Source of the DNA: an uncultured candidatus Porisulfidus sp.
Lineage (GTDB): Bacteria; Pseudomonadota; Gammaproteobacteria; Poriferisulfidales; Poriferisulfidaceae
NCBI GenBank assembly: GCA_965116025.1
Contig: OZ220480.1
Coordinates: forward strand, 576,001-640,000
Direction of reading: 5' to 3'
DNA: 64,000 bases
The position numbers and the translations under genes are program-made. The notes below the pieces were generated by a model. The model was not told where the DNA came from. It made no database searches and worked only from the letters and a program-made list of their open reading frames with translations. Position 1 is the stretch's first letter; every line of letters begins with the position of its first letter. This document shows positions 32,746-46,600 of the stretch, in pieces.

Positions 32746-33186
32746 ACCCGCGCGGGTCTCGCGGATTACGGGCTATTAGCCCCTTGATGGTCGATCACCA
32801 GTCCTGCGCGGCCCGCGCTTACGCGCCCCGCGTTCGCCCTAATCAGGATCACCGGTTCTAGGCGCTCCCTCGCGCCTCGCGCCCGAACCGAGACCGCGTC
32901 CGCATTATCGGACGCGTGACGTGCAAAGCGTGAAGCCCGCCCGAATGGACGGCTAGCGAGTGAGAGGAATTGATGCCCGCGCCGGGTCAAAAGCCCGCGC
33001 GGATCACCTTTTCAGTGTGTGCGTTTTCCATGTAGCACCGGCGAGTCTAGCACACTCGCGGCGCCCTTAAAGCAGAACGCCCGACCTCGCGACCGGGCGC
33101 CCTATCCCTTTGCCGGCAATCAGGGTGCTACATGGACAGCCGGCGGGTGAAATCTTTTTCAGACTCCTTGCCCGAAAGTTTAGCAC

Positions 33187-33211
33187 AGGGTGTCACATTG
33201 TGTGACACCCT
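33187..33211. promoter_or_regulatory. Perfect palindrome (11-bp arms) next to an extended -10 on the minus strand
   Basis: agggtgtcaca-ttg-tgtgacaccct, with TGCTAAACT on the minus strand at 33177-33185. Confidence 0.55.
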
Positions 33212-33876
33212 CGCGCCGCCAGTGTGTCCTTTTTGCCACACTTCATTACATCCCGCTTCACGGCCAGCGGGATCGGCGCGAGACAACGCGGGCATACCAG
33301 CAGCTCCTCGATCCGCCGGCGTAACGTCCGCAATTCCTCTTCCTTTCGCGCGAGCTTCCCGGACAACTCCGCTATCAACGCCTTATCGCTGGCCGACGGC
33401 GCGGCGGCCTTCGCCCGCTTGCGACCGCCCCGCGTCCGCTCCGGACGCGGCGGCTTTCCATCCAGCTCGTTCATCGCGTCAAGCGCCGTAGGAAGGGAAA
33501 CGCCCATTTCCTCCGCTATCGCCCGCGCGGACGGCGCCGCCTCGCCCTCGCGCTCCGCCCGCCATCGGTATACCTGTATTCGCGTCTTGCACCGCTCCAG
33601 TTTGCTCACATGGCGCCGCCAGTCATTCACCCGCAAAACGAACGCCGCCGGGTCATCGCCGGCGAACTCGCGCATGCGCGGGGTCGGGTCTCTATAAAGC
33701 GCCAGCATGCACCGGTACCGATGCCAGCCGTCCAGCGCCTTGCCCTCGTATAGCGTGATCTCCACCGAGCCGTCGTCCGTCTTGATGCTCGCCTTCAGCT
33801 CCGCCCGGTCCGCCTCGCCCATCGTTCCGAACGCCGCCGATAGCGGATGCCGTTCAAGGATAGTAAGATTGTCCAT
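33193..33876 (-). CDS. Phage-type ParB-like N-domain plus HTH and coiled-coil protein
   Basis: HPLSAAF..M....ELKASI, ITLYEGKALDGWHRYR, F.GDDP.AFV..N..RRH, then SARAIAEEMGVS (HTH) and a CxxC near the C-terminus. Confidence 0.7.
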   Translation of the reverse strand: MDNLTILERHPLSAAFGTMGEADRAELKASIKTDDGSVEITLYEGKALDGWHRYRCMLALYRDPTPRMREFAGDDPAAFVLRVNDWRRHVSKLERCKTRIQVYRWRAEREGEAAPSARAIAEEMGVSLPTALDAMNELDGKPPRPERTRGGRKRAKAAAPSASDKALIAELSGKLARKEEELRTLRRRIEELLVCPRCLAPIPLAVKRDVMKCGKKDTLAARGCHTM

Positions 33877-34054
33877 GTCGCACTCCCATGCGATAGCGGC
33901 GCCGCGCATGGCCTGCCCGCGAATATAGGCCGGCGCTGGCGCCCATTAATAAACGGGCATTCCCAGACTCCTAGCCGCCACTAAACGGCCACAATTTTGT
34001 TAAGACGGGAAGAACATCCCGTCAAGCGCGCCAGCGTTGTCGGCGGCCTTGCCC

Positions 34055-34351
34055 CTATTCTATACGCCCCGCGTCTTCATCAACGCTCCGGGGCGGGCGG
34101 CCCGGACGCGGCTTGTCCTCGAGGCCGGCCATCCCCCGCTCCGCGAAGCGATTGCGCCACTTCCTCGCCGTGAAATAGTGAACGCCCAACTTCGCGGCTA
34201 TGCGCGGATTGCTCAATCCCTCCGCCGCGAGCAACACCACCCGCGCCCGTTCGGACTTCGCCCGCGATATGCTCATCTTGCGCGCCCGCCGCTCCAGCTC
34301 CGCGCGCTCCTCATCGGTCAACGTGACCGGTACCGGCTTGCCCATGAGCAA
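34055..34351 (-). CDS. Stand-alone IS630-type HTH DNA-binding domain
   Basis: LTDEERAELE..RARVVLLAAEG.SN..IAAKLG...KWRNRFAERG.AGL.DKPRPGRP followed by a stop. No DDE domain or IS ends seen. Confidence 0.75.
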   Translation of the reverse strand: MLMGKPVPVTLTDEERAELERRARKMSISRAKSERARVVLLAAEGLSNPRIAAKLGVHYFTARKWRNRFAERGMAGLEDKPRPGRPPRSVDEDAGRIE

Positions 34352-43007: not shown

Positions 43008-43081
43008 CTGGGGGGTATCCAGGTAATGCCGCCGGATACCCCCCGGCTATATGTACTCGAAGCATATTCATCATGGATGCC

Positions 43082-43111
43082 ATCCTAGATGAAGTCCGCG
43101 CCATCTGTCAA
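43082..43111 (-). promoter_or_regulatory. Sigma70-like promoter for the packaging operon
   Basis: TTGACA-N18-TAGGAT on the minus strand, 75 nt upstream of terL. Confidence 0.55.
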
Positions 43112-43697
43112 TAGCCTAATTCGCCAAGCGAGATCGCGCCCCGCCAGGGGTATACCCCCCTCCCTCTCGCCGACAAAAAAAAAGTGTAGCGGTAAAGCGC
43201 ACTTTTCCCGGCTAGACACGTTTTGCCCGTGAAGCCCGCAGGGTTCCCTAAACTCGATAGATTTCCCGCGATCTCGCGCCCGCCTCGCGCCTCGCGCCCT
43301 CATTCACCCGCCCCGAACGCGCAAGCCCCCCACGCGCGATTTACGCGCCTTCCTCGATGCCCGAAATTGACCGAAAAGTGCAACTTTTCCGCGCTCGCGC
43401 CCGCCTCGCGTAGCTTCTCACCACCGCTCGGTAGCGGCTTGCCGCCGACCCGTATTGACGGATGCCATTGGCCGCCTAGCGATCGTTTCAGCACAGCGCC
43501 TAGCGCGCGGCTTTGGATAATTCCCTTCGCTTAAAGGCGAAGCGAGGAATTATCGCGCCGCTCGCTTAGGCGCGTAAGCGGCGTTGACCCGCCCGCAACG
43601 CGGGCGTATCTGTCCTATACCCTAATAGCGTGAAGCGATTCGGCAAGCCGGACTTCACTGGGCGCTACTCACGGCGGGCGCTTCGCCCTTTTCAGCC

Positions 43698-46600
43698 CTA
43701 TGTCATTCCAACGGCGGGCCTAATTTCCGCTTTCGCAGGCGCTTCGCGGCCTCTCATAAGGCGGCTTGGCCGGGCTTTCTCATACACCTCGGTGAACTCA
43801 GTGAAACTCCAACGTCCGAATTTTTCGAGCGCGTTCACACCAGGCACCCAATACGTATCCATGGTCGCCTTCTTCGCCTTGGCATCCTCTCCCCGATAGC
43901 CCTTGATTTCTACGACCAAGTGCAGAAGGTCATCAGGACCCCGTCCGTCATCCACCAGAACGATGAAATCTGGAATGTAGATTCGCGTCTTCGCTCCATA
44001 CCGATAGGGCACCTTGAAATCCAATCCATGATTCTTGATGTAGGACCGCACCTTTGAATGGGCCTCCGCGACTCGACAGAATTCGGCTTCCCAACTACTA
44101 TCGCATACGACCCAGTTAACGTGGCTTTGATCAGAGGCGGTCTTCCATAACGTTTTCTTTGATGTCGTGAAATTGACGTTGGTTGTAGATCCAACTGGGT
44201 TGTAAGGATCCAAGACCGCTTTGACTGGACGCGCGCCCACATTCTGGGCGACTATACCTTGCGTGATACGCTCGCAAGCCATGTCCGCGAGTGATGGATA
44301 CATCAGCTGCGCCATAGAGGTTCCACCTCTGCAGACGAGGTGATGATCCAGCCAGTGACGCGTGATTCGCTTGAGCTGACCGAACAAATAAACTTTTGGC
44401 TCTTCGTTCGAGTCATGCCATTTCGTTTCCAGTAGTCGCTTTGTCAGGTGATACAGCAAGGTAGTGCGACGCAAACCGCCCGTGTCGACCAGTCTCAGAT
44501 CCACTCCCTCACCGATTATGCCCTCGTTACGGATCTTAGTCGGCCCCACAAGATCGGGAGTTAACTCCAGCGTCGAATCTTCACTGAACGTTGCATGCAG
44601 AAAATCTTCTGGTAGATCGACTCGGTAGCCCGCGACACGTGGGAAACGGATTTCGCAAGCATCCCGCTCCGGCGTGATCGCCTTGACATGAACGGTCTTG
44701 CGAGGCGGTTGCGGTGGCGCGACCACGGGTTTCGCGGTAAAGTCAAAAGGAATTCCGAACACGTCCGCATACTCCACGGGAAGCATGCCCTCATCGTTCA
44801 ACTCATAGGATTGCCGGCGGAGCGCCCTGCCTACCGCTTGCTCGCACAAAAGTTGGGTGCCAAAAGCGCGAACACCGAGAACATGGGTAACGGTGTTGGC
44901 ATCCCATCCTTCTGTCAACATCGAAACAGAGACCACGCAACGGATCGTTTCGCCCAATTGTCCTTTTTTGCCAACAGTGTTCAGAACTTCGCGCAACAGG
45001 TCCTGATCGGCAATATTATCGCCGTCACGAATGTCGCCAGTGCGCCGAATGCGGTCGCGACGAAAGCGCTCAATTTCATCTACCGCGATCTTGTGAAAAC
45101 TTGGATCCAAGGCATCTCCAGATTCAATTTGCTCGCTATCGATCAAGAGAGTGCGCGGTCGCCCTAATGGAACACCATGGTCATCAAAATTTCGGAACAG
45201 GTCAAGATGGCCGTTGACTAGGGTTTGCGAACCATCCTGTTGCTTTTTATGGAATCCCGCGATGTAGTCGTAGATCAACTTTGAGGTCGATGTGTTGTTG
45301 CAGATCACGATAAAACAGGGAGGAACATCTATGCCAGCGTCGCACCAAAAGTCAAAGGTTTTTTTGTAGTCGCCATAGATAGCATCCAATGCTGTCTGCA
45401 ACATCACCGGAAGATGGCGAGGATCCTGATCGATTCTTTGGCGCCTTTTTTTTGGCATATCTGCACCGATATGCTCCCATAGATTGCGGTATTTCGGCAT
45501 GTCGCCATCAGCGATATTGTCGGCCACTGGCACTCGCGGCAATTTGACGATCCCGCACTCAATCGCGTCCATCAGCGAGAAGTCGCTGACAGTCCAAGGA
45601 AACAGCGTCCCTTCCGCATAACCCGATCCACTCAGGAAAAAAGGTGTCGCGGACAAGTCGATGGCGCGCGGGCCCACGGATGCCGGACGGTTCTCCGGCA
45701 TCCCTTTGTTGAGCGTGCGCGTAACCGCCTCCAATCCAGAAACCCAGAGCCTCGCGGCCTCTCGATTCTTTTTTGCCTCCTCGCGCGAATCACCCCGTAG
45801 CTGATCCCTTTCAACATCTGGCTTCTCCCGATAGCAGTGGTGCGCCTCGTCATTCAATATGAGCACGTTCCTCATGCCCATGAGCTTGGGCATCACCCGC
45901 TGGAGCATCTGCCCTTCCGTTTCTGTGGAACACAGATCCGGGCCGCGGCCCTGGAGAAACGCCCGACCGCCTTTCGATAAGTTCATCGTGTCTCGGAGCT
46001 TGAAGGCGTGATAGTTGGTGATCACGATCTGCGCGCGGTTCAAGTCATTCAACATGTCTCCGGGAACGAGCTCTCGACTTTGATAGTAGCTGTCCGGGTC
46101 ATTCGGCTGAAGAACTCGGAGACGGTCCTTGATAGTAATGCCCGGAGTGACGACGAGAAATCCCCGGGTAAAACGATGGCTGGACGGGTGGCGAACCGCG
46201 TTGATCGTCTGCCACGCGATCAGCATAGCCATGACCGTGGTCTTGCCCGCGCCAGTCGCCAGTTTCAGCGCCAGCCTTTCCAGACCCGGGTTGGCTTGCT
46301 CGTTCACGCCACGTATGTGATCAAGAAACTGTTTTCCGGTTTTATCAGAGGGCGCGACTTCGGTCAGCCAAATCACCGTCTCGACGGCCTCAAGCTGACA
46401 AAAGAATGGGCGGTAATGGCTGAATTTATGGTGATGCCAGTGATCCAGCAGATGCTCCGTCTCCGGTGTTACTCGAGATTTCAACAGGTTTCGATTTGAC
46501 CTCCATCTGTCTACAGCGCCACGAACGTTATTGATGGCATCCTCCAGTTCGTATTCTTGGCCATCGATTTGTCGCGTTGGCTCATCTACAGCCAAATTTC

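Follow-up and report, generated by a model that had tools for sequence, protein, structure and literature searches.

A co-oriented gene block within a type III-like res gene

The window, a stretch of 64,000 nucleotides from the single-contig genome (2.02 Mb) of an uncultured candidatus Porisulfidus sp., contains a block of co-oriented genes that interrupts a restriction-modification locus (Table 1). Pfam and PHROGs searches confirmed the gene content proposed in a sequence-only reading of this DNA, namely TerL, HNH endonuclease, capsid, portal and four RTX genes. They also bore out its statement that the block has no integrase, transposase, primase, tail or lysis gene, as neither a DDE domain nor any such family was matched. 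No protease, TerS or connector family was found in the block by the same searches.

Table 1. Features of the inserted block and its flanks (window coordinates)
Feature	Position	Strand	Evidence or remark
Flank: type III-like res gene	43779..46850	(-)	PF04851 + PF19778
Whole inserted block	32760..43778	(-)	about 11,019 bp, genes co-oriented
Upstream non-coding end	43008..43778	(-)	771 nt, strong hairpins
Doubtful 72-aa ORF	43085-43303		in upstream end; without Pfam or PHROG match
Promoter-like site	43111-43082		match 10/12
TerL, HK97 type, 521 aa	41442..43007	(-)	phrog_9 E 7.8e-36; PF03237 27.6 bits
HNH endonuclease, 107 aa	41122..41445	(-)	PF01844 32.3 bits; phrog_144 E 7.7e-18
Major capsid protein, HK97 fold	39759..41105	(-)	PF05065 29.2 bits (cut-off 24.2)
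Portal, 344 aa	38725..39759	(-)	PF04860 40.2 bits (cut-off 39.1); phrog_12 E 2.4e-9
Orphan ORF, 112 aa	38362..38700	(-)	residues 61-104 common to second RTX locus
Four RTX (beta-roll) genes	34641..38231	(-)	37236-38231, 36388-37191, 35513-36343, 34641-35468; PF00353 E 1e-39 to 1e-68
72-aa ORF	34426..34644	(-)	no family match (Pfam, PHROGs)
HTH protein, 98 aa	34055..34351	(-)	HTH_29/28/23/32, E 1e-11 to 1e-15
ParB-N-like + HTH protein, 238 aa	33193..33909	(-)	phrog_21315 E 3e-6
Downstream non-coding end	32760..33192	(-)	433 nt
Flank: displaced res tail + mod split by IS630	28731..32759	(-)	res tail 32686-32759; mod N-part 31449-32675; IS630 transposase 30316-31449; mod C-part 28731-30227

The insertion in res was verified by comparison with res homologues. 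Alignments of 13 homologues (65-71% identical) to the res of the window end at residue 1023-1027 of 1050, and a conserved tail following 'FTDVY', kept in nine homologues, is absent from it. The missing tail is encoded across the insert at about 32759-32686 and is closely followed by the start codon of mod (32675). The res gene is cut about 25-35 aa short of its natural end and its ORF continues into the insert up to 43698. Homology to res breaks at 43778, which confirms the right end proposed before, and picks up again at about 32759, with about 4-5 codons (about 12-15 bp) missing at the junction. Both the res-tail homology and the ends of contigs from run X2 favour a left end near 32760; position 32746, given earlier, is about 14 nt too far left. 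The GC content of the block is 60-70%, compared with 46-59% in the restriction-modification flanks. Neither terminal inverted or direct repeats of the block nor a target duplication were found. Since no target sequence is duplicated and only little of it is lost, the block looks like an entry into the 3' end of res by illegitimate (non-site-specific) recombination.

The res-mod system carries a further insertion, an IS630 element in mod. In Pfam searches, PF01555 positions 1-111 and 171-218 fall on the two mod pieces with DDE_3 in between, and this IS630 is present in three copies (99% identical) in the genome.

TerL matched PDB 6z6d_A ('Terminase large subunit', E 1.6e-19), which we take to be the HK97 TerL enzyme, and is 27% identical to the TerL of HK022/HK542. 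The adjoining HNH gene has an identical position in all related modules; HNH proteins are required for cos cleavage, and this one is a candidate partner of TerL in cos-type packaging. The capsid ORF comprises 491 aa and reaches 41234 (39759-41234); homologues measure about 412 aa and align from M44, the likely start. An AF2 model of the capsid (pLDDT 66.6) has long helices at residues 3-81, suggesting that the protein carries a fused N-terminal helical, delta/scaffold-like domain. Foldseek matched the model to encapsulins and to the capsids of T5, D3, HK97 and RcGTA (E 1.5e-8 to 4e-6). The portal gene directly follows the capsid gene with no protease gene in between; a prohead protease is normally indispensable for HK97-type heads that possess a delta domain. 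Although its Pfam score lies barely over the cut-off and its AF2 model (pLDDT 39) is too poor for use, the portal profile matched PDB 9i8c_A ('Phage portal protein', E 1.9e-6). All four head genes are intact and full length compared with homologues, as had been claimed.

The RTX-to-ParB half and the non-coding ends

The orphan ORF beside the portal gene found only itself and a same-genome paralogue among 5.8 billion proteins. It shows 91% identity over 44 aa to genome positions 880217-880348, and because its residues 61-104 are common to this second RTX locus, we place the seam between head module and RTX block near 38520. The RTX genes share a C-terminal sequence of 11 residues and have many paralogues at many loci in the genome. 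Judging from repeat periods of 875 and 848 nt (86-100% identity), the last three are apparently recent tandem duplicates. Variation of the array, suggested before, was confirmed by run X2, in which it is 1730 nt shorter. The 72-aa ORF at 34426-34644 is conserved together with the RTX block, a copy at genome 884362-884577 being 99% identical, and the 98-aa HTH protein has a 94% identical copy at the second locus. The latter had been described as a solo HTH; the domain itself was confirmed, but it represents the HTH portion of a transposase of IS630 type, being 46% identical to the N-terminus of the transposase at 30316-31449 and having no DDE domain.

Homologues of the 238-aa protein carry the source labels 'ParB-like' or 'ParB N-terminal domain'; its atlas look-alikes are viral, one cluster containing ParB_N (score 0.90). 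We regard it as a candidate DNA-recognition or partition factor. Over residues 1-103 it shows 95% identity to the second locus. The RTX-to-ParB half has a paralogue (88-95% identical) elsewhere in the genome without head genes, which makes the 11 kb block a mosaic. The genome contains a second terL, a pseudogene (44% identical) that is split by IS630, has internal stops and also adjoins an RTX gene.

The upstream non-coding end is a candidate cos/packaging region. Within the downstream end, an element of about 250 nt (32785-33020) has a 79% identical intergenic copy at genome 759829-760060, and an exact 17-nt motif is common to both ends (43283-43299 and 32868-32884). The description of the ends as hairpin-dense received modest support: the predicted folds are somewhat better than those of shuffled sequences, with z -2.8 upstream (1/20 shuffles as good) and z -2.2 downstream (3/100 shuffles as good). 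An Rfam search gave no match and guide-like repeats were absent as well, so that the proposed nucleic-acid-guided integration found no backing.

Relatives of the head module and other sequence contexts

A TerL-HNH-capsid-(protease, small ORF)-portal module is conserved in Vicinamibacterales, which belong to another phylum (Acidobacteriota). A capsid match was obtained in 5 of the 201 Vicinamibacterales genomes sampled; related genomes contain one to four capsid matches each, some of them fragments. Nucleotide similarity among the copies is limited to the module itself (about 5 kb). Pairwise dN/dS values of 0.09-0.41 (26 comparisons of terL, capsid and portal genes) point to purifying selection on the head genes of these copies. 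A tyrosine integrase lies within about 7 kb in 12 of 14 related loci, a set that is partly redundant in that L053 and L054 resemble one repeat at two contig ends and L047 and L055 are near-identical. Lack of an integrase is therefore not a family trait, in contrast to the proposal that it characterizes the system. Homologous heads largely come with an integrase, a finding which the sequence-only reading had itself named as speaking against it.

One related element, L004, is cleanly bounded by 52-nt att repeats at the 3' end of tRNA-Pro. Its 10,180 bp comprise the head module, the integrase, a pentapeptide gene and another two ORFs but no gene for tail or lysis. Another (L003) measures about 6.6 kb and is flanked by 17-nt repeats at tRNA-Ser. 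In the relatives, the interval between portal and integrase contains methylases, a SIR2-like gene and an AAA_25 gene, and they possess a prohead protease, which is absent from the copy in the window. A scan of their flanking ORFs detected no tail gene. Neither the relatives nor the block here showed a recognisable head-tail adaptor or connector, so that tail-stealing is an assumption. The same compact module in another phylum supports the earlier view that the block is not simply a decayed prophage. Within the window's own order there is a single relative, G032. A Prim-Pol/VapE primase gene is situated about 9 kb away from it, it is accompanied by portal fragments and IS pieces, and it has neither a TerL match nor a nearby integrase; an integrase-less sub-lineage may therefore exist.

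The capsid protein matched none of 50,697 phage genomes, capsid and TerL proteins were detected in none of the 15 other genomes of the genus, and the capsid profile matched one of 400 sampled genomes of the class, namely the source genome itself, where the capsid and portal of the block are the sole matches of their kind.

The block also circulates in at least one other sequence context. In the public run X2, all its unique parts occur at a depth of 465-540 compared with 27.6 and 28.4 for the flank contigs, i.e. about 17 times deeper. The X2 allele of the block is 1-4% diverged, whereas the flank contigs do not differ from the window. The contig at high depth terminates at 43778, and of the flank contigs at low depth one runs up to 32789 and the other sets in at 43749. 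A high-depth contig can match the window no further than the homology between them reaches, and these ends therefore do not prove element termini. Being contigs, the X2 data fit a free or encapsidated form, a copy in the chromosome of an abundant organism and a larger element that includes this block as one part.

Comparison with known systems and origin of the block

According to PMC10085698, cf-PICIs (e.g. EcCIEDL933; SatelliteFinder) are likewise small chromosomal islands that themselves encode capsid (HK97 type), portal, TerL and HNH but neither tail nor holin, and the relatives of the block further share tRNA integration by a tyrosine integrase, a prohead protease and defence-type cargo. 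The block itself has at most four of the components named there and lacks the integrase, AlpA/MerR-type regulator, primase-replicase, TerS, protease and head-tail adaptor/connector. Its order is TerL-HNH-capsid-portal, its capsid and portal are barely detected by Pfam, and Acidobacteriota and a Gram-negative lineage with small genomes take the place of the Proteobacteria/Firmicutes hosts reported. The Streptomyces satellites MulchRoom and MiniFlayer are described in PMC10690885 as encoding TerL, portal, capsid and HNH and needing a helper, MiniFlayer being without integrase. Unlike the block, both were obtained as particles whose helpers are known, and MiniFlayer does not reside in a chromosome.

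The mini 'twilight zone' metagenome genomes (5-11.6 kb) share an HK97-fold capsid, sizes below those of isolated tailed phages and the absence of tail genes, and PMC13669383 proposes a satellite lifestyle as one explanation. Their dominant group is described there as having no portal, terminase or packaging gene and encapsulin-type domains; the block has a capsid of PF05065 type together with TerL, HNH and portal. VEIMEs (marine virion-encapsidated integrative mobile elements) are small, integrated and abundant outside the chromosome, and about 20% have no recognisable integrase; unlike the block, their vast majority has no capsid-like structural genes and is packaged as concatemers in helper capsids (10.1101/2022.07.26.501625). 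Compared with the cos-type packaging module of HK97, the block shares the TerL type and the HNH gene adjoining terL, but it has no TerS gene and no portal-protease-capsid order. Literature searches found no published description of this capsid-forming satellite lineage.

On balance, we favour the view that the block is an island gained by horizontal transfer, with a core formed by the head-and-packaging module of tail-less, capsid-forming satellites whose lineage has been sampled only sparsely. As integrase, primase, protease and TerS are lacking, half of the block is also found at a second locus and entry was apparently non-site-specific, this copy is most probably a stranded or trans-dependent derivative rather than a novel, self-sufficient type of mobile system.

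A less probable explanation is an active integrase-less head-only element, in which a complete 11-kb unit defined by its ends is packaged and re-inserts via host or helper functions or via end-joining of its linear packaged DNA, with the RTX genes as cargo. Its size (11.0 kb) is close to that of the att-bounded relative (10.2 kb), its head ORFs are all intact and its junctions resemble the insertion of a linear molecule, without duplication and with small target loss. In run X2 the block including its RTX/ParB half has one uniform depth, a 96-99% identical allele with a different RTX copy number and a contig end exactly at 43778, and satellites without integrase are on record (MiniFlayer, VEIMEs). 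Against this stand the integrases of the related loci, the missing protease, TerS, primase and connector, the head-less copy of the RTX/ParB half, and the fact that contig ends do not prove element termini. Moreover, searches of the genome revealed no resolvase, Ku or tape-measure match and no resident phage. Only two tyrosine recombinases were detected in it, one of which adjoins DUF484 and reads as Xer-type.

That the block is the remnant of an ordinary tailed prophage without function of its own appears improbable. The terL pseudogene beside an RTX gene, the visibly degraded state of G032 and the many functions missing here would fit such decay, but two phyla share the compact layout of head genes only, with purifying selection indicated for the Vicinamibacterales copies, and an att-bounded relative has no tail or lysis gene. 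Furthermore, the capsid protein matched no sequenced phage, and the block with its four intact head genes is abundant in another context. Even harder to defend is domestication by the host as a GTA-like or encapsulin-like particle or compartment that is functionally tied to the RTX proteins: structural matches of the capsid model to encapsulins and RcGTA and two instances of RTX genes adjoining terL would agree with it, yet the lack of capsid and TerL matches in the 15 other genomes of the genus and of further capsid matches in the sampled genomes of the class, the DNA packaging implied by portal, TerL and HNH, and the integrase-bearing relatives with several copies per genome argue otherwise, and with RTX paralogues at so many loci the adjacency may be chance. 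An assembly chimera, for which no supporting point was found, can practically be dismissed given the single contig, the displaced res tail, which lies precisely where the insert ends on its other side, and contigs of run X1 bridging both junctions (32301-33637, 43123-45276), even if X1 may be the source sample and hence not independent support.

For the satellite-derived island that we favour, a mechanism can be proposed from the gene families. Upon infection by a helper phage, the capsid with its fused scaffold-like domain and the portal would assemble a small procapsid with a capacity of about 10-11 kb. The HK97-type TerL and HNH would then cleave the structured non-coding DNA upstream of terL at a cos-like site and fill the head, with tails and lysis supplied from elsewhere. 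In this copy, head maturation, replication and any site-specific integration would also have to come from elsewhere. Relatives are tRNA islands that integrate by themselves; the copy in the window probably entered res by illegitimate recombination.

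Gene content of the block and its insertion into res

The window covers positions 576001-640000 of a complete single-contig genome of 2.02 Mb. All genes between ~32760 and 43778 lie on the minus strand, and searches against Pfam and PHROGs bore out the gene content proposed by the sequence-only reading, i.e. TerL, HNH, capsid, portal, a hypothetical protein, four RTX genes, a small ORF, an HTH gene and a ParB-like gene.

Genes of the minus-strand block inserted in res, with window positions and the matches on which the assignments are based
Feature	Position	Strand	Basis of assignment
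Large terminase (TerL)	41442-43007	-	phrog_9, E 7.8e-36; PDB 6z6d_A, E 1.6e-19
HNH endonuclease	41122-41445	-	PF01844, 32.3 bits
Capsid protein	39759-41234 (ORF)	-	PF05065 above cut-off; Pfam family Phage_capsid, not encapsulin
Portal	38725-39759	-	PF04860 above cut-off; profile matches PDB 9i8c_A, E 1.9e-6
Orphan 112-aa ORF (hyp112)	38362-38700	-	
Four RTX genes	34641-38231	-	
72-aa ORF	34426-34644	-	
98-aa HTH protein (HTH98)	34055-34351	-	HTH portion of an IS630-type transposase, without DDE domain
238-aa protein (orf238)	33193-33909	-	ParB-like by source names; atlas look-alikes viral, some with ParB_N, score 0.90

The capsid gene probably starts at 41105, since homologues align from Met44. 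An AlphaFold model of the protein (pLDDT 66.6) showed a pair of long helices at the N-terminus, and Foldseek assigned the domain behind them to the HK97 fold, with matches to encapsulins and to the T5, D3, HK97 and RcGTA capsids (E 1.5e-8 to 4e-6); no PDB sequence matched the capsid profile. Encapsulin systems comprise a shell and a cargo gene without DNA-packaging genes, whereas TerL, HNH and portal adjoin the capsid gene here. The structure model of the portal (pLDDT 39.1) was unusable, and its assignment is based on sequence and profiles. For orf238, source names and atlas score provide a lead towards ParB, not proof; its closest homologues (P0183 and P0185) are 58% identical, and it has no relative in the PDB.

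No integrase, DDE domain, primase, protease, TerS, tail or lysis family of Pfam or PHROGs was matched in the block. Neither PF00589 nor PF00239 gave a match, the capsid and portal genes abut, and none of the small ORFs (43085-43303, the 72-aa ORF and hyp112) matched a TerS family; that the ParB-like ORF might stand in for TerS is speculation. Likewise, hyp112, which is an orphan in the protein search and bears no likeness to the small ORFs of relatives, and the 104-aa ORF of those relatives did not match any head-tail adaptor or connector, small proteins which profile searches often miss. A search for regulators of the AlpA/MerR type showed that the IS630-like HTH protein and the ParB-like ORF are the only HTH proteins in the block.

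The homologues of the interrupted res gene (13 from the same class, 65-71% identical, with G180 represented in this alignment only) align only to residue 1023-1027 of 1050. Past the motif FTDVY, homologues in nine loci keep a conserved stretch, and the window res has 26 unrelated residues instead; this conclusion stands on seven loci without L009 (G079) and L016 (G334). The missing tail ('...RAGIESEFENLIAFF...') is encoded on the far side of the block, where 11 nt separate its end from the start codon of mod at 32675. The break in homology and the displaced tail therefore place the 11 kb within the last ~30 codons of res, the gene in which the insertion had been suspected. At the junctions ~4-5 res codons are gone and a target duplication is absent. 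A repeat search of the block ends found no terminal direct or inverted repeats and no att-like or TIR-like pair. The GC content is 60-70% in the block and 46-59% in the R-M genes. Furthermore, mod (28731-32675) is split by an IS630-family insertion with its transposase at 30316-31449, so that both res-mod genes are disrupted. This element is present in three copies in the genome, which are 99% identical.

The GC content of the R-M genes is also below that of the surrounding genome, and they look like an island of their own. A C-5 cytosine methylase gene (46996-48105) lies directly upstream of res, followed by that of a 1201-aa TonB-dependent receptor (48462-52067). In relatives, the res-mod spacer (~0.9-1.3 kb; 4575-5217 in L010, across loci L009-L017) holds a small two-gene cassette absent from the window, which in ORF translations looks like a nucleotidyltransferase/HEPN-type pair.

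The non-coding ends of the block (433 and 771 nt) fold somewhat better than shuffled sequences (z -2.2 and -2.8) and have one 17-nt motif in common. Rfam gave no match in 32000-44500, and promoter and terminator scans were overall at chance level. A sequence of ~250 nt at the left end (32785-33020) recurs, at 79% identity, between unrelated genes elsewhere in the genome (759829-760060; L019 4829-5060). It is probably non-coding, because the protein identity of the overlapping ORFs is only 53%, and it contains at least one hairpin with a compensatory change and no Rfam match. The right end (43414-43645) showed a weak nhmmer match (E 1.8e-9) to genome positions 857303-857540.

Relatives of the head module

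Among 5.8 billion proteins, 29 homologues of the capsid were found, the closest of which (P0001) is 63% identical. There was no match in 50,697 phage genomes, and scans for close relatives of the capsid in genome, viral and metagenome contigs found none; the relative loci came only from a tight Vicinamibacterales alignment. One other genome among 40 relatives searched carries the capsid gene. Neither TerL nor the ParB-like gene was present in any of the 15 other genomes of the genus. An RcGTA-type gene transfer agent is a vertically inherited head and tail cluster conserved in related genomes, whereas the block has no tail genes, its capsid occurs in 0/15 congeneric genomes, and the capsid profile detected, among 400 sampled genomes of the class, only the window's own.

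The best-sampled relatives are Vicinamibacterales MAGs, in which the order TerL-HNH-capsid-X-Y-portal is conserved. Here X, located between capsid and portal, is a Peptidase_S78 prohead protease (61.5 bits). A capsid match occurs in 5 of the 201 Vicinamibacterales genomes sampled, and related genomes contain one to four such matches. Nucleotide similarity among copies of the module is confined to the ~5 kb from TerL to portal, and dN/dS values are 0.09-0.41 for the terL, capsid and portal genes. In one genome (G440:C6), two capsid loci of equal score, L053 and L054, lie inverted at both ends of a single 410-kb contig, which reflects a genuine inverted duplication or else an artefact of assembly.

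A tyrosine integrase is located within ~7 kb in 12 of 14 related loci, which are not all independent. The block itself has no integrase, but the lack is not a trait of the family, and the proposal of an integrase-less system is not supported. One of the islands, L004, is a 10,180-bp element bounded by 52-nt repeats at the 3' end of a tRNA-Pro gene; it contains an integrase, two further ORFs (one matching phrog_6247), the head module and a pentapeptide-repeat gene. Another, L003 (~6.6 kb), is bounded by 17-nt repeats at a tRNA-Ser gene and is without integrase. Methylases, a SIR2-like gene and an AAA_25 gene make up variable parts of the related islands. No tail or lysis genes were found in L004 or in the flanking ORFs scanned around the relatives (part of the ORFs of 14 loci). 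Accordingly, the Vicinamibacterales loci are small islands which integrate and produce heads of their own.

In the order to which the window belongs, the one relative is G032. Its HNH-capsid-portal unit likewise has no protease and lies amid IS and portal fragments, ~9 kb downstream of a Prim-Pol/VapE gene. Neither a TerL match nor a nearby integrase was found in this genome. At its locus (L021, G032:C1:1352000-1371900), portal fragments precede the HNH-capsid-portal unit, which is flanked by direct repeats of ~230 nt (13748-13984 and 17421-17750; 98% identical as protein), and two porin paralogues, 74% identical, enclose the island.

Capsid-forming satellites are defined by making their own heads (PMC10085698), and the SatelliteFinder model in that source describes them from enterobacteria and Firmicutes with 11 components. 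Among the cf-PICI components which it names, terL, HNH, capsid and portal are present in the block, in keeping with its rule of 'no tail or holin', whereas integrase, primase, terS and protease are absent. The Vicinamibacterales islands share the head-making of these satellites, but are leaner and occur in a different phylum. The block should not be filed as a cf-PICI, even though it probably works like one. MiniFlayer is a capsid-encoding satellite without integrase (PMC10690885); ~20% of the marine VEIMEs are without integrase, and most encode no capsid (10.1101/2022.07.26.501625); 'mini' HK97 genomes are described without portal and terminase (PMC13669383). A keyword search of the open-access literature, which is not proof of absence, found no description of a TerL-HNH-capsid-portal island family and no report of satellites in Acidobacteriota.

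A probable divergent allele in sequencing runs, and paralogous loci in the genome

Three public runs from one study (X1, X2 and X3) were compared as contigs; the head module is present in X1 and X2 and not in X3, and no RNA run was among those listed as carrying it. In X1, which may be the source sample, block and flanks are about equally deep, and each junction is spanned by contigs. The X2 flank contigs (31429-32789 and 43749-48000) match the window without a difference, at depths of 27.6 and 28.4. All unique parts of the block, from the left through the right non-coding end and including the ParB-like, HTH, orphan, portal, capsid and TerL ORFs, have depths of 465-540. One high-depth contig (40610-43778) stops exactly at 43778, with 35 differences over 3167 nt. 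In a second one, 35302 is directly followed by 37033, so that 1730 nt, or about two RTX repeat units, are missing. We infer that the whole block is present in X2 as an allele of 96-99% identity whose RTX array is shorter, in a context other than res/mod and ~17 times as abundant as this chromosome. The RTX/ParB half and the head module thus move together, and the RTX array is variable.

The X2 form may be free or encapsidated, or may sit in another genome or within a larger element; contigs cannot show which, because they must break where homology to the window ends. The X2 joints listed (15 of 45) all lie inside RTX repeats or IS630-like sequence, and no circle junction is among these 15, which is not evidence of absence. 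In X3, which carries the same organism label, the head module and much of res are almost without coverage, and the run hence yields no empty-site sequence.

Comparisons within the genome show the block to be a mosaic. The stretch 33548-35549 matches genome positions 885464-883512 at 88% identity, in a second RTX locus (L018, 880217-888348). This locus is flanked by genes for pyruvate kinase, aldolase and ferredoxin reductase on one side and for an amidohydrolase on the other. In the order of the block, this locus contains a homologue of the orphan-ORF C-terminus, an IS, two RTX genes, the 72-aa ORF (99%), the HTH gene (94%) and residues 1-103 of the ParB-like protein (95%), and no head genes. 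It also holds an autotransporter fragment. RTX paralogues occur at many further sites. A second terL (806333-808747; L020 10334-13186) is a pseudogene, 44% identical, with internal stops and split by one of the IS630 copies. It adjoins a 478-aa RTX gene and a 105-aa ORF; capsid and portal are absent there.

Origin and possible mode of life

Searches of the genome for tape-measure, resolvase and Ku proteins gave no match, and those for capsid and portal gave none outside the block. Any helper has therefore to be external. Tyrosine recombinases were found at two sites only, 813.5 and 1251.5 kb; the one beside DUF484 is read as Xer-type, as is, more tentatively, the other, and the genome has no obvious integrase for the block. 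Three routes into res were considered and dropped: Xer-type (IMEX) integration, as the site lies inside res; NHEJ, as Ku was not found; and mobilisation by IS630. An IS630/Tc1-mariner unit has terminal inverted repeats, a TA duplication and a DDE transposase, whereas the block has no such repeats, shows target loss instead of duplication, and encodes HTH98 without a DDE domain.

On balance, we lean towards the view that the block is a satellite-type head-and-packaging island which lost, or never had, functions for integration, replication and maturation, reached res by illegitimate recombination, and is now either dependent on functions in trans or stranded. Judging from the gene families, capsid and portal would assemble into a procapsid, and TerL and HNH would cut a cos site in the upstream non-coding region. 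Tails would be borrowed from elsewhere, which is an assumption only, because no head-tail connector was recognized.

The bolder proposal of the sequence-only reading, an active integrase-less element, seems unlikely to us and retains some credit mainly because of the high-depth contigs in X2 and the intact head genes. Its fullest form is more doubtful still: a living, self-packaging 'head-only' element of unit-length linear DNA with ends at 43778 and ~32760, inserted illegitimately and carrying fast-varying RTX cargo, for which the 17-fold excess in X2 would be free or encapsidated DNA. Ordinary decay of a tailed prophage is improbable as well: no modules or debris for tail, lysis, replication or lysogeny were found in 32760-43778, the flanks are R-M genes, and the att-bounded relative L004 is likewise without such modules.

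The block and its Vicinamibacterales relatives represent a much leaner capsid-forming set, consisting of TerL, HNH, a capsid with a fused scaffold-like domain, portal and sometimes a protease, in elements of 6.6-11 kb, no larger than the smallest tailed-phage genomes known, and in phyla for which the literature search gave no report of satellites. Should particles form, the genes would amount to a compact set for building and filling an HK97-type DNA-packaging capsid, and the host range of tail-stealing satellites would be extended. The block also shows RTX genes carried and reshuffled on a phage-derived vehicle, and it offers a case in which to test how such elements persist or spread once the integrase is lost. 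Even if merely stranded, it illustrates cleanly how the remnant of a satellite can disrupt a restriction system.
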